Below are positions 3,177 through 38,711 of a stretch of 64,000 nucleotides of DNA, in pieces. The notes beneath the pieces were generated by a model that did no database searches, was not told the DNA's origin, and worked only from the letters and a program-made list of their open reading frames with translations. Numbering within the stretch: the first letter of the stretch is position 1; every line of letters begins with the position of its first letter. Origin of the DNA: Clostridium sp. (lineage in GTDB: Bacteria; Bacillota; Clostridia; Clostridiales; Clostridiaceae); NCBI RefSeq assembly GCF_036660475.1, contig NZ_JAVXAO010000001.1, positions 38,257 through 102,256 of the forward strand. Direction: 5' to 3'. The translations under genes and the position numbers were made by a program.

Positions 3177-3926
3177 CTACTTTTCACTTGATAAACCTTT
3201 TACATTAGCTAAAAATTTTCTTGTTCTTTCATTCTTAGGATTTAGAAATATTTCTTCTGGCTTTCCAGCTTCTACAACTATTCCATCCGCCATAAATATA
3301 ACTCTATCTGCAACATCCCTAGCAAATCCCATCTCATGGGTAACTATTATCATAGTTAGATGCTCTTTTGCTAAGTTTTTTATTACACTTAATACTTCTC
3401 CTACTAGTTCTGGATCCAAAGCTGATGTAGGTTCATCAAATAATATAACCTCTGGATTTATTGCCATAGCTCTAGCAATAGCAACACGCTGTTTTTGACC
3501 ACCTGATAAGTTTTTAGGATATACATCTTTTTTCTCACCCATATTTACCTTTTCAAGCATTTCACTGGCAATATTTTCAGCTTCTTTTTTGCTAAACTTT
3601 TTCACTAAAACTAAAGCCTCCATTATATTTTCAATAACCGTTTTATTATTAAATAGATTATAATTTTGGAAAACCATAGCGGACTGTTTTCTTAAATTAT
3701 TAACTTCATTATTATTAATATGTTTTGCATTTATGCTTGCACTTCCTATGGTTATTTCACCCTCTGTTGGAACCTCCAAGTAGTTTAAACACCTTAAAAA
3801 TGTAGATTTGCCTGAACCAGATGGACCTATTATTACTACAACTTCACCAGTCTCAACCTCTAAATTTATATTTTTTAGAACCTCTAATTTCCCATAGGTC
3901 TTCTTTAAATTTTTAATACTTATCAT
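3177..3926 (-). CDS. Polar amino-acid ABC transporter ATP-binding protein
   Basis: Walker [10 protein letters not shown], signature LSGGQKQR, Walker [12 protein letters not shown]. Confidence 0.92.
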
Positions 3927-17180: not shown

Positions 17181-17351
17181 TTATTAACTCCTAATATAAA
17201 ATTTCAATGAATTATATTAACTTTTTATCCCATCTCAATTATAAAACCCCAATTAATCAACTCTAATTCTCTACTATATATTCCAAATACCTTCGCACCC
17301 CGAAACGTAACTATCCTTTTCAAAGTTTTTGTTACTTTTTTCTAAAATCTA

Positions 17352-17365
17352 TTGTATTTATACAA
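17352..17365. promoter_or_regulatory. Palindrome TTGTAT-TT-ATACAA in the promoter of the RRNPP regulator (candidate operator)
   Basis: Perfect 6-2-6 inverted repeat about 90 nt upstream of the TTG start. A related palindrome precedes the paralog. Confidence 0.35.
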
Positions 17366-17451
17366 AATATGCTATAAGATATAATTATAGTAACATTATT
17401 AGAATTTTCTTAATACTATAATGTTAATACTAACTAAGGAGATGAAAACAT

Positions 17452-18726
17452 TTGAACTTCTTCAGCCCAGGCGAAAAGATAAAAATATTCAGAAAAAAAT
17501 TAAACATTAAACAGATTGAGCTTGAAGAAATAGGTGTTTCTAGAAATTACATAAGCATGGTAGAAAGCGATAAGCGCAATCTTACCGGAAAAACTTTAGA
17601 AAAATTAGTAGAATTTATAAAAAATAAAGCTACTGCTTTGAATATTAATATTGATATTGATAAAGATAGCCTAGTATTAAGTAGAGAAGAGCAAGCTTTA
17701 AACTACTGTAATGATAAATTATTATCTGATTTAGATTTAGCTGGAATTAACCAGATTATATCTATTGGTGAAAAATATAAATTGTTTGATATTTTATCTA
17801 CTGTTTATTTTCTAAAGGGAGACTTATTATATTCTGAAAATCTATTTGATAAAGCAATTATATTTTATTATGATGCATTAGAGCTTTATGATTCCAATAC
17901 TGATGATACTATTAAAGCTCAACTATATAATAAACTTGGAAAGTGCAAGCTTCAAACTCTATGTTACGAAGAAGCCCTAGCATATTTCTTCAAGTGTCAT
18001 TTTCATTTAAATGAAGGTACCGATAAAATCAGTTATCAAAACTGTATATTTAATATAGCTATTACCTATAAAAAGATGGGTGAATTTGATAATGCACTTT
18101 TATATATAAATAAACTCTTATCAATATTAAATGCAGATGACAACCTTGATATTTATATTGATATGATGATTTTAGAAGCTAATTGTTATATTAGTAAAAA
18201 TGAATATACTGCAGCCATAAAAATATATAATCACGCTATAAATGTATATGGCAGTAAGTTAGGGACATCACTTGGGTATATATACAACAATCTAGGATTG
18301 ATATATACAGATATAAATGAAATTGAAAATGCAATAGACTACTTTGATAAGTCTATTTATATCAGGCAGTTTGAAGATACTTCTACACTATCCCATTCCC
18401 TAATTAATAAATCAACAGTATACGTCAAACTTAATTCTAATGATGAGGCTATAGATTTATTAAAAAATGGTATCTCCCTAGCCATCAAATATGGCGATAA
18501 AGAATATATGTTAAAAGGATATATGTTACTAGCTGAGTTGTACTCAAATATAAATGATTCTAGAAAATTACAAGAAATTTATTTGAACTTAGTAACTATT
18601 CTTAAAGATACTGATTCAGATAAGTTAGTTGATATATACATTAAGCTTTCCGTTCTCTACCTCGATACTGAAAACTATGAAAAATGTAGGGAATATTTAA
18701 TTAAAGCTCAAGAGTTTACAAAATGA
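17452..18726 (+). CDS. RRNPP-family quorum-sensing regulator (XRE-type HTH plus TPR peptide-binding domain)
   Basis: N-terminal HTH_3 (IKQIELEEIGVSRNYISMVESDKRNLT) followed by about 350 aa of TPR-like repeats. TTG start lies 9 nt after aaggag. A secreted-peptide gene follows immediately downstream. Confidence 0.8.
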   Translation: MNFFSPGEKIKIFRKKLNIKQIELEEIGVSRNYISMVESDKRNLTGKTLEKLVEFIKNKATALNINIDIDKDSLVLSREEQALNYCNDKLLSDLDLAGINQIISIGEKYKLFDILSTVYFLKGDLLYSENLFDKAIIFYYDALELYDSNTDDTIKAQLYNKLGKCKLQTLCYEEALAYFFKCHFHLNEGTDKISYQNCIFNIAITYKKMGEFDNALLYINKLLSILNADDNLDIYIDMMILEANCYISKNEYTAAIKIYNHAINVYGSKLGTSLGYIYNNLGLIYTDINEIENAIDYFDKSIYIRQFEDTSTLSHSLINKSTVYVKLNSNDEAIDLLKNGISLAIKYGDKEYMLKGYMLLAELYSNINDSRKLQEIYLNLVTILKDTDSDKLVDIYIKLSVLYLDTENYEKCREYLIKAQEFTK

Positions 18727-18805
18727 TACTGCAAGTTTATTGATTAATTATTTTGCTATACTTATAAAACTTTAAATAAATAATAAATAAAAAGAGGTGA
18801 TATTA

Positions 18806-18937
18806 ATGAAAAAGAAAATGACTAGAATAGTTGCATGTATTTGTATATTAGCTGTAACTGGATTCTTTGGAATTATGCGTAGTACTGATGATCCAAAACC
18901 TAGAGGTGAAGTTACACCAGTAGTTCAAAACGCTTAG
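18806..18937 (+). CDS. Candidate secreted signalling pro-peptide (43 aa), cognate to the upstream RRNPP regulator
   Basis: RBS agaggtga 7 nt upstream. Translation is MKKKMTRIVACICILAVTGFFGIMRSTDDPKPRGEVTPVVQNA: a basic N-region, a hydrophobic core and a 19-aa polar C-terminal part. A strong terminator follows. It is not in the ORF track because it is under 60 aa. Confidence 0.65.
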   Translation: MKKKMTRIVACICILAVTGFFGIMRSTDDPKPRGEVTPVVQNA

Positions 18938-18976
18938 TTTTATGAACTCAAACCTTTAATTACTAGACCTAAGTAT

Positions 18977-19034
18977 AGAACTATTCTAAATAATGACATT
19001 TAAATTCGTCATATTAGAATAGTTCTTTATTTTT
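18977..19034 (+). terminator. Terminator of the regulator/pro-peptide operon
   Basis: 13-bp stem agaactattctaa/ttagaatagttct followed by ttattttt. Confidence 0.7.
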
Positions 19035-19072
19035 GCATTTAAAATAACTATACCTATTCAACATTAAATTTA

Positions 19073-19088
19073 TTGTAATATTATACAA
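19073..19088. promoter_or_regulatory. Palindrome TTGTA-N6-TACAA upstream of the HTH-less paralog
   Basis: ttgtaatattatacaa. The surrounding ~45 bp align with the promoter region at 17350..17395. Confidence 0.3.
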
Positions 19089-19178
19089 TATAGTGTAAAA
19101 TATAACTATAATGTCCGGATAATTTGTCGATTGTTCAGAATTATTGTATAAATACTAAAGCAGGATGGTGAGAATTTT

Positions 19179-20246
19179 ATGTTAATTGAAGAAAATAAAG
19201 CTAGAATCTATTGCACTGACCAATTGAATTTGAAGTTAACTTCTAATGAGATTGATAAAATCATAGATATTTGCGAAAAATATAATATGTCGGATTTAAT
19301 ATCTTCTGCTCATATCCTTAAAGGCAATCTTTTGTATGAAAAAAACTTATTTAATGATGCATTTTTACAATTTAGCCACGCCTTATCTTCTTATGATAAT
19401 ATTAGTATGATGGATAAAATTTATATATATAATAGGATGGGTGCATGTAAAATTCTTACCTTGCACTATGAAGAAGCTTTAGCTTATCTTTGCAAATGTT
19501 ACTCTTATGTAATTGATTTTAATGATGTTAATCTTACTCGTAACTGTATTTTTAATCTAGCACTAACCTATAAAAAACTAGGTGAATTTGATAATGCAAT
19601 TATATATATTGATAAACTTTTAGACCTATCTGATTTAACCCATGATTTTGATAAATATATTGACCATATTATACTAAAGGCTAATTGCTATATTGAAAAA
19701 AATGAATATCATACAGCTATCGAGCTTTATACTGAAACATTAAATAAATTTAATCCTACCATTAGTCCATTATCAGGTATTATCTATAATAACCTTGGAT
19801 TAATTTATCTAGATATAAATGATTTAGATTGTTCTCTTAATTTTTTTAACAAATCCATTTCCATTAAGAATTCTTTAGATATCTCTACATTATGTCGTTC
19901 CCTTATAGATAAATCGAAAGTTTATATTAAAAGAAATCTATATTCTGAGGCTATAGAACTACTAGAAAAAGGTATAATCTTAGCCAATGAATATGGAGAT
20001 AAAGAATACTTATTTAAAGGCTATACTTTACTGGAAGATGCCTATGTAGCCTTAAAAGATCGCAATAAACTTGAAGAGGTTTATCTGCGTTCCCTTCAAG
20101 CTCTAAATGACATTGATAGTTGTAAGCTATTATCTATATATAATAAATTAACTATGATTAATCCTAGTTATTTTTCTCACGAAAAACGTAATGAGCTCTT
20201 GTTTAATAACAAGTCACTTAAAAATACAGGAATGCATTTTCTATGA
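19179..20246 (+). CDS. RRNPP-like TPR receptor paralog lacking the HTH domain
   Basis: By eye it is roughly 40-50% identical to residues ~75-424 of the 17452 protein (shared blocks include YEEALAYL, NCIFNLALTYKKLGEFDNA, IYNNLGLIY and YGDKEY). It has its own RBS (ggtgag) and ATG, and no HTH coding remnant lies upstream. Confidence 0.75.
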   Translation: MLIEENKARIYCTDQLNLKLTSNEIDKIIDICEKYNMSDLISSAHILKGNLLYEKNLFNDAFLQFSHALSSYDNISMMDKIYIYNRMGACKILTLHYEEALAYLCKCYSYVIDFNDVNLTRNCIFNLALTYKKLGEFDNAIIYIDKLLDLSDLTHDFDKYIDHIILKANCYIEKNEYHTAIELYTETLNKFNPTISPLSGIIYNNLGLIYLDINDLDCSLNFFNKSISIKNSLDISTLCRSLIDKSKVYIKRNLYSEAIELLEKGIILANEYGDKEYLFKGYTLLEDAYVALKDRNKLEEVYLRSLQALNDIDSCKLLSIYNKLTMINPSYFSHEKRNELLFNNKSLKNTGMHFL

Positions 20247-20346: not shown

Positions 20347-21348
20347 CTAAAGCTTTTTTGTACTTTCTCTCACTATTAGCTTTGTTGGAATTACAACTTT
20401 TCTGCATACTTCACTTCCACATTTTAATCTTCCCATTAAGGTTTCCACAGCAACCTTTCCCATAAAATCTGTATACACTTTTACGGTTGTTAATGCTGGT
20501 GTTAAGAACTGAGATGTATATATATCATCAAAGCCTATAATACTTATATCCTCAGGGATTTTATAGCCGCTCTCTAAAGCTGCTCTATATGCACCTATAG
20601 CCATGGGATCACTAGCTATAAAAAAGGCTGTTGGAATCTCTTTTTCTTCCATTGCCATTTTCATAAGTTTATACCCATGTTCTGGTAAAAACTCTCCCAA
20701 ATATATATTGCTGTCCTTTAAATTATTAATGGATTCCATGAATTTCTTATAGGTTTTCTCTCTTTGATCAATTATCTTTTCTTTGCCATTGCTTACATAC
20801 TCTTCGCCACCTATAAACCCTATGTTTCTATGTCCTTCATCATATAAATGACTTAATGCCCTTGTAACTCCACCTTCATAGTCTATTACTACAGAGTCAT
20901 ATTCTAACTCACTAGGTGAAGAGTCTATAAATACTATTTTATCTGATACTCTTCTTATATTTTGAATTTCTTCCTCACCAAACTTACCTATGGCAACTAT
21001 TCCATCTATATCTTTATATTGTTTATCCCTATTAAAATTTATATATGTAAAATTAATATTTTCTTCATTACATTTTCCTTCTACAGCCATCCTTATAGAC
21101 AAAAAATATGGATCTCTAATTTCATCACCTTCAGTATACCAATTAACTATTCCTATATTAAAATATTTTTCCTTAGCCCTCTTTTGCTTACCTGACACAT
21201 ATTTAAGCTTCTCTGCCACCTCAAAAATTTTCTTTTTCGTGTCTGGGGATACATTCAATCCCTCATCAAAATTTAAAACCCTTGAAACTGTTGTCATTGA
21301 AACCCCTGCCATGGCTGCAACTTCTTTTATTGTTGCTATAATACTCAC
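20347..21348 (-). CDS. LacI-family transcriptional regulator (GalR-like by context)
   Basis: HTH ATIKEVAAMAGVSMTTVSRVLN plus a periplasmic-binding-fold domain. It lies downstream of galM and divergent from galKT. Confidence 0.85.
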   Translation of the reverse strand: MSIIATIKEVAAMAGVSMTTVSRVLNFDEGLNVSPDTKKKIFEVAEKLKYVSGKQKRAKEKYFNIGIVNWYTEGDEIRDPYFLSIRMAVEGKCNEENINFTYINFNRDKQYKDIDGIVAIGKFGEEEIQNIRRVSDKIVFIDSSPSELEYDSVVIDYEGGVTRALSHLYDEGHRNIGFIGGEEYVSNGKEKIIDQREKTYKKFMESINNLKDSNIYLGEFLPEHGYKLMKMAMEEKEIPTAFFIASDPMAIGAYRAALESGYKIPEDISIIGFDDIYTSQFLTPALTTVKVYTDFMGKVAVETLMGRLKCGSEVCRKVVIPTKLIVRESTKKL

Positions 21349-21363
21349 CCCTTTGCATTTATT

Positions 21364-22401
21364 CTAGCTAAATTTAAGTATGGTAGTCCTCCTATATTCT
21401 TCTCCTGGTTTTAAAATCGAAGCTTCTTTGAACTCACCATTGTATCCTATTGGCACACTTTGTGTTTCAAAACAACCTGCCATTCTCGGTTTTGCTCTTG
21501 TCCCCCCACTCAATAATTTTTCTGTTGGAAAATTCATAGAGTAGAAAACTACAGCTTCAGTGTCTGTTATGACCTCCATAGCTCTCCCTGACTCTTCATC
21601 CTTGAAATACACCCCAGTATCCTGATTTTTATTTAGAATCCAACAATGGTCATAGCCACTACCTCTAATAATCTGAATATCCTTAGTTTCATCTATATCC
21701 CTTCCAATTTCTTTTCTAATATTAAAATTAAAGGGCGTTTCCTTAACATCTAGTAATCTTCCTGTAACTATAGACTTCTCATCCATTTCAGCAATCTTAT
21801 CACTATTTATTATAAGTACATGATTTAGTATATCTCTTTTTCCATTCCCAGATAAATTAAAATAGGAGTGATTAGTTAAATTTAATAATGTATTTTTATC
21901 CGTAGTCCCAAAATAGCCTATTGAAAGTTCATTTTTATTATTCAAACTATAATAAACTTCCAAATTAACATTACCAGGATAACCACCTTCTCCATGTGCA
22001 CTTAAACATCTTAATTTTACTCCAACAGTATCCTCAGTTTCCACCACTTCGCCCTTCCATTTTATATCATGAAGCCCAGTTTCACCACCATGAAGTGTGT
22101 TCCCATTATTATTTTTAGTTAATACTATTTTCTCACCTTCAATTATTATTTCTCCGCCCCCAATTCGCCCAGCTGTCCTTCCTACAATAGCTCCAAGATA
22201 ACTATCATTTTCATAATAATCTTCATAATTTTCATATGATAAAACTATATTTTCAAAGTTACCATCCTTATCCCCTGTGAGTATCTTAGTTATAACGCCA
22301 CCTAAAGACAAAATCTCTACAACCATATTGTTATCATTAACCAATGTGTATATGTCAAAACTTCTATCCCCTTTATTAAATTCACCTACTGATATTTTCA
22401 T
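21364..22401 (-). CDS. galM: Aldose 1-epimerase (galactose mutarotase)
   Basis: 345 aa with NHSYFNL and GYDHCW motifs, in a gal cluster context. Confidence 0.85.
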   Translation of the reverse strand: MKISVGEFNKGDRSFDIYTLVNDNNMVVEILSLGGVITKILTGDKDGNFENIVLSYENYEDYYENDSYLGAIVGRTAGRIGGGEIIIEGEKIVLTKNNNGNTLHGGETGLHDIKWKGEVVETEDTVGVKLRCLSAHGEGGYPGNVNLEVYYSLNNKNELSIGYFGTTDKNTLLNLTNHSYFNLSGNGKRDILNHVLIINSDKIAEMDEKSIVTGRLLDVKETPFNFNIRKEIGRDIDETKDIQIIRGSGYDHCWILNKNQDTGVYFKDEESGRAMEVITDTEAVVFYSMNFPTEKLLSGGTRAKPRMAGCFETQSVPIGYNGEFKEASILKPGEEYRRTTILKFS

Positions 22402-22470
22402 ATAAACCCCTCACCTATTTCATCATTTTAAAATTCATTACTGATTCTTCCCCTCATCTTGAATAATGAA

Positions 22471-22530
22471 TTCTAAATCCTAAATCCTAAATCCTAAATT
22501 TTAAATTTTAAATTTCAAATTTCAAATCCC
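22471..22530. repeat. 7-bp-period tandem repeat in the galM/galK divergent region
   Basis: (cctaaat)x3, (tttaaat)x2, (ttcaaat)x2. Confidence 0.85.
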
Positions 22531-22746
22531 ACTCTATATTTATTTTACTAAAATAATTGATTATTTTCACTAAATATTTATAATTAAGATATAGACATCT
22601 AATAATTCTTATATTCATGTGGAGTTTGATTAAGAAAACACCTTACTGCATTCTGATTATTAGAAGAACCTAGAGTCATTTCCGCCGTTATACCTATATT
22701 ATACAAGCTTTTAGTGTTATACGGCTAAACATCATATAAATTTAAG

Positions 22747-23928
22747 GTGGGGATACATGTGGATATAATATCAACGGTTACAAACAAATTTGAAGAAATA
22801 TTTAATGAAAAGGGCCAAGGTGTATTTTTTAGTCCTGGCAGAGTAAATCTAATTGGGGAACATATTGACTATAATGGTGGTTTAGTATTTCCTTGTGCCA
22901 TTACTCTCGGTACCTATGGTGTTATTAATCTAAATGAAACTGAAACTATCAGAGCTTATTCATTAAACTTTGATCAAACCGGTATTTTAGAGTTTTCTAT
23001 AAATGATTTGTCATATAATGAAAATCATGGTTGGGTTAATTATGTAAAAGGAGTCCTAAAAGAATTTAAAGAAGCTGGGCATAATATTAATAAAGGCTTT
23101 GATATATTAATTTATGGAACTCTTCCAAATGGAGCTGGACTCTCGTCTTCTGCATCCCTTGAAATGCTTATTGGAAAAATCCTTATAGATTCTTTCCAAT
23201 TAAATATGAGCAAGGTTGATTTAGCTCTCCTTGGTAAAAGAGTTGAAAATAATTATATCGGAGTTAATAGTGGAATCATGGATCAATTTGCTATTTCCCT
23301 TGGCAAAAAACATAATGCCATTGAGCTTGATTGCAATACTTTAAATTATAACTACGCAGAGCTAAACTTTAAAAATGAGAGTATTGTTATAATGAATACG
23401 AATAAAAGAAGAGAACTTGCTGATTCAAAGTATAATGAAAGAAGAAGTCAATGTGAATCAGCCCTTGAAAAGCTTAAAGCTATTAAAGATATAAATGCAC
23501 TTTGTGAATTATCCCTTAAGGATTTCAGGACAATAAAATCAACTATAAATAATGAAATTGAAATAAAAAGAGCTCATCATGCTGTAGCTGAGAATGAAAG
23601 AGTTAAACTTGCTATGATTGCTCTTAAAAATCAAGACTTAAATAAATTTGGAAAATTAATGACTGAATCTCATATTTCTCTGAGAGATGATTATGAAGTA
23701 ACAGGCATAGAGCTTGACACCTTAGTATCTGCAGCTTTAAAACAAGCTGGCGTTCTCGGTTCTCGTATGACTGGTGCTGGCTTTGGCGGCTGTGCTATAG
23801 CACTTGTAGATAATAATCATATCGATAAATTTGTAGAAAATGTAGGAATTATATATGAGAATGAAATTGGATATAAAGCTTCATTTTATATTGCTTCAAC
23901 TTCTGAAGGTCCTAGTTCAATAAGTTAA
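22747..23928 (+). CDS. galK: Galactokinase
   Basis: PGRVNLIGEHIDYNGG, GAGLSSSAS and MTGAGFGGC motifs. The true start may be GTG 22759, 8 nt after aaggtgg. Confidence 0.92.
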   Translation: MGIHVDIISTVTNKFEEIFNEKGQGVFFSPGRVNLIGEHIDYNGGLVFPCAITLGTYGVINLNETETIRAYSLNFDQTGILEFSINDLSYNENHGWVNYVKGVLKEFKEAGHNINKGFDILIYGTLPNGAGLSSSASLEMLIGKILIDSFQLNMSKVDLALLGKRVENNYIGVNSGIMDQFAISLGKKHNAIELDCNTLNYNYAELNFKNESIVIMNTNKRRELADSKYNERRSQCESALEKLKAIKDINALCELSLKDFRTIKSTINNEIEIKRAHHAVAENERVKLAMIALKNQDLNKFGKLMTESHISLRDDYEVTGIELDTLVSAALKQAGVLGSRMTGAGFGGCAIALVDNNHIDKFVENVGIIYENEIGYKASFYIASTSEGPSSIS

Positions 23929-24099
23929 AGTATTACTTATTGAGCTTCGTTTTATTGAGTTGCGTTTTACCGATTACTCAATTTAGCTGAACTAATCCAG
24001 GGTCATATATGCTCTAATGCTCTCACCTATGAAAATATTGTAGTATTACAGCCCTATTAGATATAATATAAATTTTAAATACACAATTGGAGGTACACC

Positions 24100-25608
24100 A
24101 TGAATTTACTTTATTCACTAATTAATAGACTAATCGAAATTTCCATAGATAATAAGCTTATAGAACCCTTAGATGAAATATATGTTAGAAATAGACTTCT
24201 ATCTGCTTTTAACGAGTGTAACTATTCAGAAATTTCAAAGTTATCCACAAACTTCTCTGAAACTTTAGAACAATTAACAGGTATAGCTGTGGATAATGGT
24301 ATAATCAATGACTATTTACATGAAAAAGATATCTTTTCTAGCAATCTGATGAATTGCTTTCTAGATAAGCCTTCTGTTATAAATAAAAACTTTAAGGGAC
24401 TGTATAAAAATTCACCTGCTGCTGCTACTGACTATTTTTATAATCTAAGTAAAAACTCAAATTATATTAAGATGGATAGAATCGCTAAAAATGCTTTTTT
24501 TAAGACACCTTCTATCTACGGTGATATTGATATTACAATAAATTTATCTAAACCAGAAAAAGATTCTAAGCAAATTGCCCTTGAAAAAAATGTTGTCCGT
24601 GGAAACTATCCTAAATGCCTGCTATGTAGAGAGAATGAAGGCTATGATGGTACCATTACTCATCCAGATCGAGGTAACCATAGAACTATTTCATTAGATA
24701 TAAACAATAAAGCTTGGAGACTACAATATTCTCCTTATGTATATTACAATGAACATTGTATCGTTCTCCTTGATGAACACGAACCAATGCATGTAAGTAA
24801 GGAAACCTTTAAAACATTATTGTCCTTCGTAGAGGTTTTCCCACACTACTTCCTGGGTTCTAACGCAGGGCTTCCTATTGTTGGCGGTTCAATCCTTGCC
24901 CATGAACATTATCAAGGCGGAAATTATATATTTCCTATGAATAGAGCTAAAAACCTATTCTCCTTTAAACTCAAAAAATACGACAATATTGAGATAACTG
25001 CTCTACAATGGCCCTTATCCACGCTTAGATTAAGATGCAAAAATGTAGATGATCTTGTGGAATGTGGAGGTTATATCTTTGATGCCTGGCAAAATTATAG
25101 TGATGAAGATCATCATATCCTTGCCTCTACAGAAGGTAATCCTCACAATGCAATCACTCCAATTTGTCGTAAAGAAGATGAGTATTATATTATGGACTTA
25201 GCTCTTAGAAATAATAGAACTACTAAAGATTTCCCTGATGGAATCTTCCATCCTCATAAAGATGTTCAACATATTAAGAAGGAAAATATCGGACTTATAG
25301 AAGTTATGGGTCTAGCAATTCTTCCTGGTAGATTAAAAACAGAACTAGAGGATATTAAAAACTTTATTCTTTGTAATGATAAAACTGCTGAAGAGAATTT
25401 TTCTAAAATTGTCGCCTATCATAAACCTTGGGCTATAGAACTTAAAGAAAAATATAACTCTGATGTTGAAATTAATAGATTTATTGAGATTAACATTGGA
25501 AATAAATTTGTTAGAGTTCTTGAAGATGCAGGGGTATTCAAACAAACTCCTCATGGAATAGATGGCTTTAAGAAATTTGCTGATACTATTGGTGCTATGT
25601 ATCTATAA
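24100..25608 (+). CDS. galT: Galactose-1-phosphate uridylyltransferase (long Firmicutes type)
   Basis: 502 aa with the GalT family 2 pattern including HEHYQGG. RBS ggaggt. Confidence 0.9.
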   Translation: MNLLYSLINRLIEISIDNKLIEPLDEIYVRNRLLSAFNECNYSEISKLSTNFSETLEQLTGIAVDNGIINDYLHEKDIFSSNLMNCFLDKPSVINKNFKGLYKNSPAAATDYFYNLSKNSNYIKMDRIAKNAFFKTPSIYGDIDITINLSKPEKDSKQIALEKNVVRGNYPKCLLCRENEGYDGTITHPDRGNHRTISLDINNKAWRLQYSPYVYYNEHCIVLLDEHEPMHVSKETFKTLLSFVEVFPHYFLGSNAGLPIVGGSILAHEHYQGGNYIFPMNRAKNLFSFKLKKYDNIEITALQWPLSTLRLRCKNVDDLVECGGYIFDAWQNYSDEDHHILASTEGNPHNAITPICRKEDEYYIMDLALRNNRTTKDFPDGIFHPHKDVQHIKKENIGLIEVMGLAILPGRLKTELEDIKNFILCNDKTAEENFSKIVAYHKPWAIELKEKYNSDVEINRFIEINIGNKFVRVLEDAGVFKQTPHGIDGFKKFADTIGAMYL

Positions 25609-26115: not shown

Positions 26116-28347
26116 ATGCCTAAAACCAATAGAAATATCTTCAAATTCAGCTTAATCTTTATCTTGTTCCTATTTATACTTTCTCTATTAAGTGCATTTC
26201 ATATTCACAATACATGGAAAATGCTAAATATAGAAGCTAAATTCAGTTTGGAAGAAGTCACTAAAAAAGGTTCAAATCTAATTGAAAAAGATTTTGAGAA
26301 CGACTTAGATACTCTTAAAATTATTTCTAATGAATTTATGGCTTATCCTGATATACCCCTATCTGATAAACTCAAAAGACTTAATCTTGAAGCAAATAGA
26401 CTTAATTGCACTGGTATCGGCTACGCTGATTTAGAGGGCAACGCTATACTAAGTGATGGTACAGAAGCTTATATTGGCGATAGAGATTATTTTATAAATG
26501 CCTTAAAAGGAAATGAAACCATTGCAGATTTATTAGTTGATAAAACTGACTTAAATAAACATATTGTTGTTTGCTCTGTCCCTATAATTTTTGACGGAAA
26601 AATTACTGGAGTTTTATTTATATCAAACTCAATGGAACAACTATCATCGAAAACTTCATTATCCTTCTTTGACAACCAAGGATATTCATATATTATTAAT
26701 AATAAGGGTGATATTATTTTAAACCCTAATCAAAGTACAAGCACATTAAACATTTTAAGCTCGATGAAAAATTTTCATCACAATTATGTTGATAACTTCA
26801 GGACAGATCTCAGCAATAATGCTTCTGGTGTAACCAGGTTAATGTTTAATAATATTGATACATATATAGGCTACTCACCCATAGACGGTACAGAAAATTG
26901 GAGTTTAATATCTATTATACCCACTGATGTATTTTTTGATAATTCTAAGCAAATCATGAATCAAGTATTATTATTATCTGTTATACTAATTTTTATATTT
27001 TTATGTATCATAATAAGCCTATACTTTAATCAAATGAAAAATAATAAACTGATGTATGATTTAGCCTTTACTGATAAAACTACTGGTTTATCTAATTATA
27101 ATAAATTTATTATTGATTATAACGCTAAATCTATAAATGTTAACTCTAAAAAATATGCTCTTATATATTTTGATATTGATAACTTCAAACTTTTTAATGA
27201 CACCTTAGGATATGAATTTGGAAATAGTGTTCTAAAATTTCTTTCTACTACTTTAGAAGGTATTCTTATAAATAATGAGCTCTATGCTAGACTCTCAAAC
27301 GACCACTTTGCAATATTTTTAGAATATAAAAATCATAGTAATGAAATTATAGAGTTAATAAATACTATTAACAATAGTCTAACGGATGTAGAAATTGAAA
27401 ACCATGTGAATATCGACATAGTTCTTTCACTCGGTATTTATTTAGTAGATAACGTTGAAACCGATATAAATAAAATGTTAAATAACGCAAGTATAGCAAG
27501 ATCTAGTATAAAAGGTAATCAGCATATTCATTATGCCTTCTTTAATGAAAATATAAAAAAAGTATTATCTAGTGAAATACATCTTGTAAATGAAATGAAG
27601 GTCGCTCTACTTAAAAATCAGTTTGAAGTCTACTACCAACCTAAATTTTCTCTTACAACTAATGAAATCGTTGGTCTTGAAGCTCTTATACGATGGAAAC
27701 ATCCTACACTTGGATTTATTAGCCCAGCTACTTTTATTCCACTGGCTGAAAAAAGTGGCTTCATTATAGATATAGGCAGATTTGTATTCGATAGTGTATT
27801 TAATAACTTAACTCAATGGCAAGAATCTGGCTTTAATAAATTGCCCGTTTCTATAAATATTTCTAGAGTTGAGTTGTATCAAACCGATTTAATAGAATTT
27901 TTAGACGCTCTTATACTTAAATATAATGTAGATATAAATTTGATAGAAATAGAAATTACTGAAACTGCAGCTATAAACGACTTGTTATTTACAAATGTTA
28001 TTGTTGAAAAGTTCAAAAATCTAGGATTTAAAATTTCAATGGATGATTTTGGTACAGGATATTCATCCCTTAGCTTCTTAAGATCAATTCCTATAGATAT
28101 TTTAAAATTAGACAAAACATTTTTAGATGATATCGAAACTGACCCTAGAAGCAAAAATATAGCTACCGCTATTATAAATCTAGCCAAATCCCTAAACCTC
28201 ACTGTGGTATCCGAGGGAATAGAAACAGCTGGCCAAGCTGAATTCTTAAAATTAGCGGGTTGTGATATAGCTCAAGGTTTCTACTTTGCAAGGCCTATGC
28301 CAAATGAAGAATTATTAAAATTAATGGCAAGTAATTCTAATATATAA
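26116..28347 (+). CDS. Membrane sensor protein: Cache-like extracytoplasmic domain, degenerate GGDEF, intact EAL (probable c-di-GMP phosphodiesterase)
   Basis: Two TM segments flank a ~250-aa sensor domain. The GGDEF position reads SNDHF. EAL motifs are intact: EALIRW, NISR, EITE, DDFGTGYSSL, KLDK, EGIET. Confidence 0.85.
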   Translation: MPKTNRNIFKFSLIFILFLFILSLLSAFHIHNTWKMLNIEAKFSLEEVTKKGSNLIEKDFENDLDTLKIISNEFMAYPDIPLSDKLKRLNLEANRLNCTGIGYADLEGNAILSDGTEAYIGDRDYFINALKGNETIADLLVDKTDLNKHIVVCSVPIIFDGKITGVLFISNSMEQLSSKTSLSFFDNQGYSYIINNKGDIILNPNQSTSTLNILSSMKNFHHNYVDNFRTDLSNNASGVTRLMFNNIDTYIGYSPIDGTENWSLISIIPTDVFFDNSKQIMNQVLLLSVILIFIFLCIIISLYFNQMKNNKLMYDLAFTDKTTGLSNYNKFIIDYNAKSINVNSKKYALIYFDIDNFKLFNDTLGYEFGNSVLKFLSTTLEGILINNELYARLSNDHFAIFLEYKNHSNEIIELINTINNSLTDVEIENHVNIDIVLSLGIYLVDNVETDINKMLNNASIARSSIKGNQHIHYAFFNENIKKVLSSEIHLVNEMKVALLKNQFEVYYQPKFSLTTNEIVGLEALIRWKHPTLGFISPATFIPLAEKSGFIIDIGRFVFDSVFNNLTQWQESGFNKLPVSINISRVELYQTDLIEFLDALILKYNVDINLIEIEITETAAINDLLFTNVIVEKFKNLGFKISMDDFGTGYSSLSFLRSIPIDILKLDKTFLDDIETDPRSKNIATAIINLAKSLNLTVVSEGIETAGQAEFLKLAGCDIAQGFYFARPMPNEELLKLMASNSNI

Positions 28348-38212: not shown

Positions 38213-38711
38213 ACTTATGTTCTTGTGCAAGCTCCACATAGTGAATAGCAGATGTCCTTATTGATTCAATTTCTTCTGTTGTAAGCTCTCTAACTACCTT
38301 AGCTGGACTACCTATACAAAGAACTCCTGATGGAATCTTCTTGTTTTGAGTTACAAGACTTCCCGCCCCTATAATAGTATTCTCGCCAATTTCTGCTCCA
38401 TTTAATACAATTGAACCCATTCCAACTAAAACATTATTTCCTACAGTACATCCATGGATAATACAGTTATGACCTATCGTTACATTATCCCCTATAGTAG
38501 TTGAGATTCCAAAATCATCATGTACTGTTGAATTTTCTTGGATATTAGTATTTTTCCCTATAATTGTAGTATCCATATCACTTCTTATCGCCGCACTGTA
38601 CCATATATTAGATCCTGCACCTATAGTTACATCCCCTACTACTGTTGCATTTTCCGCTATAAAACATGAATCATCTATCTTTGGTGTTTTTCCCTTAACA
38701 GTCTTTATCAT
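38211..38711 (-). CDS. Gamma-carbonic-anhydrase-like / left-handed beta-helix (hexapeptide repeat) protein
   Basis: 166 aa with a YrdA/PaaY-like hexapeptide pattern. Confidence 0.85.
   Translation of the reverse strand: MIKTVKGKTPKIDDSCFIAENATVVGDVTIGAGSNIWYSAAIRSDMDTTIIGKNTNIQENSTVHDDFGISTTIGDNVTIGHNCIIHGCTVGNNVLVGMGSIVLNGAEIGENTIIGAGSLVTQNKKIPSGVLCIGSPAKVVRELTTEEIESIRTSAIHYVELAQEHK

Follow-up and report, generated by a model that had tools for sequence, protein, structure and literature searches.

The 64,000-nucleotide stretch of the Clostridium sp. contig NZ_JAVXAO010000001.1 that was analysed here (positions 38,257 to 102,256; “the window” below, from whose first letter coordinates are counted) carries what is probably a chromosomal cell-cell signalling module of the RRNPP type that belongs to an uncharacterised Clostridium subfamily. 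The gene for a receptor combining an XRE-type helix-turn-helix (HTH) with a superhelix of tetratricopeptide repeats (TPR) is followed by a 43-aa open reading frame (ORF), and then by a paralogue of the receptor in which the HTH is absent. The receptor and the small ORF, which we call the pro-peptide gene, probably form a receptor-peptide signalling pair, and the three genes are placed as follows:

17452 to 18726, plus strand: RRNPP-type receptor gene, 424 aa, TTG start, XRE HTH and TPR superhelix
18806 to 18937 (ATG to stop), plus strand: pro-peptide gene, 43 aa, beginning 79 nt past the receptor stop
19179 to 20246, plus strand: HTH-less TPR paralogue, 355 aa, matching aa 75-416 of the receptor

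The receptor is recognisable both by its domains and by its modelled fold. Pfam places an HTH_3 domain at aa 10-56 (nt 17479-17619; E 4.9e-10, 39.7 bits against a cutoff of 23), while several TPR families, among them TPR_12 (2.1e-23) and TPR_8 (3e-23), together span the rest of the protein; the layout is that of an HTH, a linker helix and a TPR superhelix running from about aa 75 to aa 424. A scan of NCBIfam returned no specific family for the receptor, its TPR and XRE matches there being sub-threshold. The AlphaFold2 model, built on an alignment of 27 homologues, is confident and all-helical (predicted local distance difference test score, pLDDT, 92.6; predicted template modelling score, pTM, 0.85), its 23 helices forming the three helices of the HTH, a long linker helix and the TPR superhelix in that order. 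When the receptor family profile was compared with the sequences of the Protein Data Bank (PDB), NprR (4gpk) was matched in one stretch over positions 168-414 (E 7e-20) and Rap proteins were matched with E values of 1e-14 to 1e-8. By structure, Rap proteins with bound pheromones were again among the Foldseek matches, and NprR of the Bacillus cereus group (5dbk_A) was the best solved-structure relative by TM-score among the matches listed (0.53/0.62 over 421 columns), at 16-19% sequence identity.

Close homologues of the receptor number about 69, are 420-440 aa long and, wherever a source name is given, come from Clostridium; several carry the JGI label “quorum sensing regulator NprR,” and an exhaustive profile search resolved the full-length family into some 60-70 clusters at 50% identity. 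The recognition helix, VSRNYISMVE, is unchanged in the 27 homologues, the asparagines N201, N244, N279 and N280 are nearly invariant in the family, and the dN/dS ratio of the receptor gene is 0.19 (by the Nei-Gojobori method, as are all such ratios below). Three cysteines, C86, C165 and C245 (nt 17707-17709, 17944-17946 and 18184-18186), are also invariant in the 27 receptors and in almost all of the HTH-less paralogues.

Among the characterised proteins tested, the best match was RstA of C. difficile, a protein of 430 aa with the same architecture, whose alignment with the receptor extends from the HTH as far as the final TPRs (hhalign probability 99.6, E 1e-23, 393 columns). The receptor is nonetheless not an RstA orthologue: the two share 23% identity, their recognition helices differ (ITAAQISHIE in RstA), and RstA has no adjacent pro-peptide (PMC6414698) whereas the receptor family nearly always has one. 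When genomes were scanned for the exact pattern of the receptor's recognition helix, none of the loci returned bore C. difficile, C. perfringens or C. acetobutylicum in its title. The other close comparison is with the Qsr/Qsp systems of the same host genus (QssA-H of C. acetobutylicum; QssR/QssP of C. saccharoperbutylacetonicum), in which a regulator, likewise with an XRE HTH and about seven TPRs, is followed by an ORF of 39-50 aa, as here. QsrH, the sole Qsr protein compared, aligned over 407 columns at 24% identity and 99% coverage (hhalign probability 99.1, E 1e-18). Since 23-24% identity to RstA and QsrH falls below the rule of 30% identity over 80% by which RRNPP_detector delimits subfamilies (PMC10075063), the receptor is on these alignments best placed in a separate RRNPP subfamily, at least relative to these two proteins.

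The pro-peptide, MKKKMTRIVACICILAVTGFFGIMRSTDDPKPRGEVTPVVQNA, has the layout of an exported precursor, and its parts can be located as follows:

18806 to 18883, plus strand: signal-like part of the pro-peptide, aa 1-26, leaving aa 27-43 as the polar tail
18887 to 18907, plus strand: codons for DDPKPRG, the conserved core in which P30 and G34 are nearly invariant, a candidate part of the mature pheromone

Four lysine or arginine residues within positions 1-8 precede a hydrophobic run of 16-17 residues (best 12-residue Kyte-Doolittle mean, 2.77), and a polar tail follows; by its composition this is a candidate export signal. A lipoprotein reading (IVAC, residues 8-11) was rejected, the cysteine being too near the N-terminus and unconserved in relatives. 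Pfam and NCBIfam hold no model matching the peptide, and the public annotation of two relatives (L023/L024) calls it as a 43-aa gene. Homologues were found in 17 of 18 relative loci (16 loci were fetched with full-length relatives and 3 came from exact-protein look-ups; one, L015, is cut by the contig end), L002 alone lacking one, and they lie just 3′ of a receptor in L001, L003 (twice), L006-L014, L016, L023/L024 and L025 (twice). A hidden Markov model (HMM) built from 15 of these peptides detected the copies in L004 and L005, which were outside its training set, with an E value of 1e-10, and it found no match beside qsrH (L021) or rstA. In three of four close pairs the dN/dS of the pro-peptide was 0.18 (against L023), 0.27 and 0.19, and with ratios of about 0.2, close to that of the receptor, the family is, on this measure, under purifying selection. 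In the fourth pair, that of the C. tagluense group (L006:5387-5527 and L007:5387-5527), 7.5 non-synonymous changes stand against 1.5 synonymous ones, too small a number for interpretation; the resulting dN/dS of 1.34, from very few sites, could reflect pherotype diversification or noise.

The alignment of the family also shows where in the peptide this conservation lies. The signal-like part is variable, and the polar tail carries the motif [DE][DE]P-x-P-x-G-[QE]; the C-terminus is usually N[AV], and the window peptide, which contains no tryptophan, ends in QNA. The NprX precursor is of similar size (about 43 aa) with an active peptide internal to its C-terminal part, SKPDIVG(Q), in which the P-x3-G(-Q) spacing is that of the window motif (PMC3763537), and the active peptide of QspB, AEPTWGW, is likewise internal to its precursor (PMC7376267) and holds an E-P...G arrangement resembling the window core. 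On the strength of the family conservation, the shared spacing with NprX and the internal position of both known peptides, we propose DDPKPRG as the pheromone core and TDDPKPRGEVTPVVQNA as the stretch from which candidate mature fragments would be drawn; the mature signal is thereby predicted to include DDPKPRG.

Much of this had been anticipated in the initial annotation, made from the sequence of the window, which described a 424-aa protein with an XRE HTH and a long TPR domain, a 43-aa ORF 80 nt downstream (79 nt as measured here) with an export signal and a polar tail, and a shared strong terminator, and which took the whole for an RRNPP-type cassette. These elements are all present, the last of them as a hairpin conserved in relatives (see below), and two of the comparisons that it suggested—of the receptor with families such as NprR and Rap, and of the small ORF across related genomes—came out in its favour, giving a confidently modelled TPR superhelix behind the HTH, with matches to NprR and Rap, and a peptide family that is widespread and constrained. 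Its link to Qsr/Qsp holds at the level of the superfamily, as the QsrH alignment indicates, and fails at the level of the peptide, since the hallmark of Qsp precursors, a set of conserved Leu, Pro and Trp residues of which the Trp stands at or close to the C-terminus (PMC7376267), is missing from the window peptide. Its view that the peptide could not be inferred from known members was too pessimistic, given that family conservation points to the DDPKPRG core.

The same annotation had closed the cassette at position 18937 and made no mention of the paralogue at 19179-20246, which belongs to the same evolutionary module. This 355-aa protein is 47% identical to the receptor (E 3e-96) and has no HTH by Pfam; a remnant or frameshifted HTH 5′ of the gene was sought and dismissed, no frame giving a tblastn match better than E 0.39. 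The gene has its own promoter and ribosome-binding site (RBS). HTH-less genes of 351-357 aa follow the receptors in L001, L002, L004, L005, L023 and L025 (twice in the last), and intact ORFs of this size are found in at least eight genomes. A neighbour-joining tree of TPR domains groups the eight HTH-less proteins together with a bootstrap value of 100/100 and has the syntenic receptors as their sister group, and from this clade we deduce that the HTH was lost once, long ago, and that the shortened gene has been kept since. The dN/dS of the gene is 0.17, which argues that it is under purifying selection, and the protein preserves nearly all of the family-conserved residues, including the candidate groove residues N201, N244, N279 and N280. 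Its AlphaFold2 model has a pLDDT of 91.5, with low confidence in the last 11 or so residues, and its best TM-score was to the crystallised NprR(deltaHTH), 5dbk_A (0.67/0.67). No pro-peptide gene follows it.

It resembles the Rap proteins of Bacillus in consisting of TPRs without an HTH, and Rap structures are among its fold and sequence matches; it differs from them in nesting within the clostridial HTH-TPR family, outside the Rap clade, and in lacking a pro-peptide gene of its own. Rap proteins have been proposed to derive from an HTH-bearing, NprR-like ancestor (PMC9765709), and by its place in the tree the HTH-less clade would be a parallel to that NprR-to-Rap transition, independent of it. 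An exhaustive search recovered about nine further short forms (as 50%-identity clusters), and because these are scattered across the family tree, loss of the HTH appears to recur in the clostridial receptor family. Four short metagenomic members (P0148, P0162, P0172 and P0156), which fall outside the main HTH-less clade, have an MxFLTPG N-terminus and no HTH helices and look like in-frame internal deletions.

Tentatively, and with less confidence than we have in the receptor-peptide pair, we suggest that the HTH-less sibling evolved independently into a Rap-like effector, responding to peptide and acting through protein-protein contacts, which would make the locus a three-component RRNPP circuit. 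By analogy it could, for example, act on the Spo0A/Spo0E axis as the deltaHTH form of RstA may, be a dominant-negative partner of the receptor, or serve as a peptide sink for it. RstA offers the most direct analogy, since RstA without its HTH can still promote sporulation (PMC6414698) and the protein interacts with Spo0E (PMC11115286). NprR has two functions, acting as a transcription factor and also binding proteins in a Rap-like mode (PMC5349214), and does with one gene in Bacilli what would here be divided, in Clostridia, between separate conserved genes for a DNA-binding and an HTH-less form. If this interpretation is true, the HTH-less family replays the NprR-to-Rap transition, and the two genes split activities that NprR and RstA combine.

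The loci L001-L005, L023 and L025 have the module at the site that it occupies in the window, 3′ of a gene for a P-type cation ATPase, and its composition there varies (receptors are designated R1 to R3):

Window, L001 and L023: R1, peptide, HTH-less gene
L002 (array at L002:3992-8079): R1, R2, HTH-less gene; no peptide
L003 (array at L003:3992-8931): R1, peptide, R2, peptide, R3, where the locus ends
L025 (L025:289-8056, the largest array): R1, peptide, R2, peptide, R3, HTH-less gene, HTH-less gene
L004 and L005: R1-type promoter, peptide gene, terminator, receptor of another subclade, HTH-less gene

The arrays at this site thus range over one to three receptors, none to two pro-peptides and one or two HTH-less copies, and such variability suggests that signalling specificities are still diversifying. 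In C. sulfidigenes and C. subterminale (L004:3400-3880 and L005:3400-3800) the R1 receptor has been deleted, while the promoter block and the peptide, MKTKLTKCIVFLCALTLTAFIGISILSESDPGPIGKNFIIIKNL, remain and the pro-peptide gene ends at its own hairpin terminator. That the peptide has been kept with no R1 receptor beside it suggests that it is sensed by other paralogues, the HTH-less protein perhaps among them.

The expression signals of the window fit a two-gene unit for receptor and pro-peptide, followed by a separately initiated HTH-less gene:

17326 to 17385, plus strand: promoter block of the receptor/pro-peptide unit, with TTTTTGTTAC at 17326-17335, a -35-like TTTATA at 17357-17362 and a -10 TATAAT at 17380-17385
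17352 to 17365, no strand assigned: palindrome TTGTAT-TT-ATACAA, a candidate operator overlapping the -35 region of the receptor promoter
17436 to 17441, plus strand: receptor RBS, AAGGAG, read from the sequence, 10 nt 5′ of the start and kept as TAAGGAGATGAA in relatives
18793 to 18799, plus strand: pro-peptide RBS, AGAGGTG, read from the sequence, 6 nt 5′ of the ATG
18971 to 19036, plus strand: intrinsic terminator of the receptor/pro-peptide unit, an AT-rich hairpin and then a U-tract
19073 to 19101, plus strand: promoter of the HTH-less gene, with -35 TTGTAA and -10 TAAAAT, overlapped by the palindrome TTGTA-ATATTA-TACAA at 19073-19088

The receptor promoter scores 10/12 in a sigma-70 scan, and its block of about 60 nt is retained in seven syntenic loci whose flanking DNA is not conserved. 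The pro-peptide RBS is retained as AAGGAGTG or AGAGGTG in L001, L003, L004, L005 and L023. The terminator hairpin (18971-19032) has a folding energy of -21.5 kcal/mol (z = -7.0, with none of 200 shuffles as stable) and is followed by UUUAUUUUU; its structure is preserved with compensatory stem changes in L001 (-32.5 kcal/mol, z = -10.8) and L004. A consensus terminator scan detected none in the region, having missed this one because the AT-rich stem has too few G-C pairs. The promoter of the HTH-less gene is identical in L023 and degenerate, with other spacings, in L001 and L025.

The autoregulation of RstA runs through an inverted repeat lying over its own promoter, and the -35 elements of its targets are likewise overlapped by inverted repeats (PMC6414698). 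This is a direct analogy for the palindrome at 17352-17365, whose TGTA-N4-TACA half-sites are preserved in all eight R1-type promoters with varying spacer bases, and autoregulation of the receptor promoter through it would be a reasonable reading. As an operator of the family in general the palindrome was rejected, being missing upstream of R2- and R3-type receptors and of most distant receptors; with low confidence, it may be an operator for the R1 clade only. A similar palindrome occurs at -82 in one distant locus (L012). The pattern TTGTA-N4-6-TACAA has two matches in the 64 kb, at 17352-17365 and at 19073-19088, and that the second also acts as an operator is a suggestion of equally low confidence. 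The element TTTTTGTTAC, 5′ of the -35, is common to R1-type promoters (L001 has three direct CGTTAC/TGTTAC repeats at about 3850-3890) and lies also upstream of the first HTH-less gene in L025; it may be a site for another regulator.

Several observations weigh against reading the locus as a receptor-peptide circuit, or against parts of that reading. Generic TPR proteins (LGN and designed CTPRs) outscore NprR and Rap by E-value in both the profile and the Foldseek comparisons, and because such proteins match too, the receptor fold is consistent with RRNPP yet not specific to it. Asn275 of NprR is a groove residue that hydrogen-bonds to the peptide backbone (PMC3763537), and it and Asn194 correspond to N279/280 and N201 of the receptor by coordinate offset only: the near-gapless NprR match puts Y193/N194 and S274/N275 within about two residues of F200/N201 and N279/N280, and a PDB query with the pocket region, in which NprR ranked 14-15th, gave coordinates only. 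The pro-peptide is without a clean A-x-A cleavage site, the candidate being M-R-S|T in the window and T-Y-A|T in relatives, and no pro-peptide could be detected in L002, where two receptors stand with one HTH-less gene. As for the operator, two or more matches to TTGTA-N4-6-TACAA were present in 15 of 100 shuffles, and since the pattern was drawn from the sites themselves their number is not independent evidence; the palindrome was not found 5′ of R2/R3-type receptors nor of most distant receptors, and at the HTH-less promoters its spacer varies (2, 4, 6 or 8).

Three other explanations were weighed. The one that survives best, which we nevertheless regard as improbable, is an arrangement like that of Rap and Phr, in which the main partner of the pro-peptide is the HTH-less protein or, in relatives, another receptor paralogue, and the adjacent HTH receptor is regulated otherwise or is mainly a peptide-independent repressor of the locus. 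L004 and L005 lend themselves to it, keeping the peptide without the R1 receptor while a receptor of another clade and the HTH-less gene remain, and so does the HTH-less protein itself, with its four retained asparagines and its best superposition on NprR(deltaHTH). But in the distant loci that have no HTH-less gene (L006-L014 and L016) the peptide still lies directly 3′ of an HTH receptor, so that the receptor-peptide pair is likely to be the ancestral unit, and a terminator stands between the peptide gene and the HTH-less gene of the window. Rather less probable still is that an orphan XRE-TPR regulator merely stands beside an unrelated small membrane or secreted protein with which it has no signalling relation. 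The hydrophobic stretch of 16-17 residues with no canonical A-x-A, and a composition that allows a membrane-retained mini-protein, could be read in this way, and the relative RstA has no peptide gene next to it (PMC6414698); against it, the two genes are found together at 17 of 18 loci, beside receptors of down to 28% identity, in fixed order and mostly with short spacing, and what is conserved is the polar motif after the signal rather than the hydrophobic segment, as expected of a pheromone precursor. That the HTH-less gene is a decaying, 5′-truncated pseudogene with no role in the system is very improbable and disfavoured, for although its DNA-binding domain is gone and its last 11 or so residues are modelled with low confidence, its ORF is intact across genomes and its clade undivided, its dN/dS is low, its conserved residues are retained, it has a promoter and RBS of its own, and the rest of its model is confident.

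Returning to the receptor-peptide pair, we infer a circuit of the following kind. The sigma-A-type promoter at 17357-17385 would drive a bicistronic unit of receptor and pro-peptide that ends at the hairpin terminator. The pro-peptide would be exported through Sec by means of its MKKKMTR and hydrophobic N-terminus, cleaved around residue 26/27 and, once extracellular, processed further to a short DDPKPRG-containing peptide, which on re-import would bind the concave TPR groove of the receptor, where the family-invariant Asn201, Asn244 and Asn279/280 are the candidate lining. Binding would then alter the interaction of the receptor with DNA, for which precedents of either sign exist: the peptide of NprR is an activator of its receptor (PMC3763537), that of QsrB an antagonist (PMC7376267), and RstA seems to require a cofactor for DNA binding (PMC6414698). 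The likeliest target would be the TGTA-N4-TACA palindrome at the receptor's own -35, giving autoregulation, and the receptor might also act at the related palindrome that overlaps the HTH-less promoter. The HTH-less sibling would most likely bind the same or a related peptide and work through protein-protein contacts, in the manner of Rap, apo-NprR or RstA-deltaHTH, or else titrate the peptide or the receptor.

The surroundings of the module are those of an ordinary chromosome. A phage (arbitrium-like) or plasmid context for the window was considered and set aside, the neighbours being housekeeping genes (NAD synthase, chromate transporters, the P-type ATPase, LacI/galM/galK/galT and ribonucleotide reductase). 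Downstream, at 20347-25608 and 26116-28347, the minus strand carries genes for a LacI-type regulator and an aldose 1-epimerase and the plus strand those for galactokinase and galactose-1-phosphate uridylyltransferase, and after these comes a gene for a dCache-GGDEF-EAL cyclic di-GMP protein; these are ordinary chromosomal genes, and a link to the cassette is not evident. The P-type ATPase gene, intact in the window and in L024 (883 aa), is split in the metagenome-assembled genome L023 (L023:2125-4641; 211 and 594 aa), probably by a frameshift or an assembly error. Family members of 35-36% identity are found on records labelled as large plasmids, namely H1/H2 of C. tagluense (161-183 kb) and L015 of Haloimpatiens, and the family is therefore not confined to the chromosomal site.

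In clostridia, sporulation, motility and the making of toxins and solvents are all under the control of RRNPP systems. To our knowledge, very few clostridial receptor-peptide pairs have been defined, and the best-studied receptor, RstA, is without a known ligand. The family described here offers a receptor, distant from RstA, with a linked and conserved pro-peptide, whose predicted core, [DE][DE]PxPxG, is a concrete peptide to test. The kind of system is already known—computational surveys have predicted tens of thousands of RRNPP pairs (PMC10075063)—and the receptor-peptide pair taken alone is a new subfamily member; the novelty lies in the conserved three-gene module, whose HTH-less receptor arose independently, in the distinct pheromone motif and in the dynamics of the arrays. 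With its HTH-less sibling, and with the HTH apparently lost more than once, the family is a naturally occurring case outside Bacillus in which to study the passage from a DNA-binding sensor to a Rap-like regulator. Unsurprising in kind, the system is a tractable handle both on peptide signalling in the clostridia and on the origin of Rap-like proteins.

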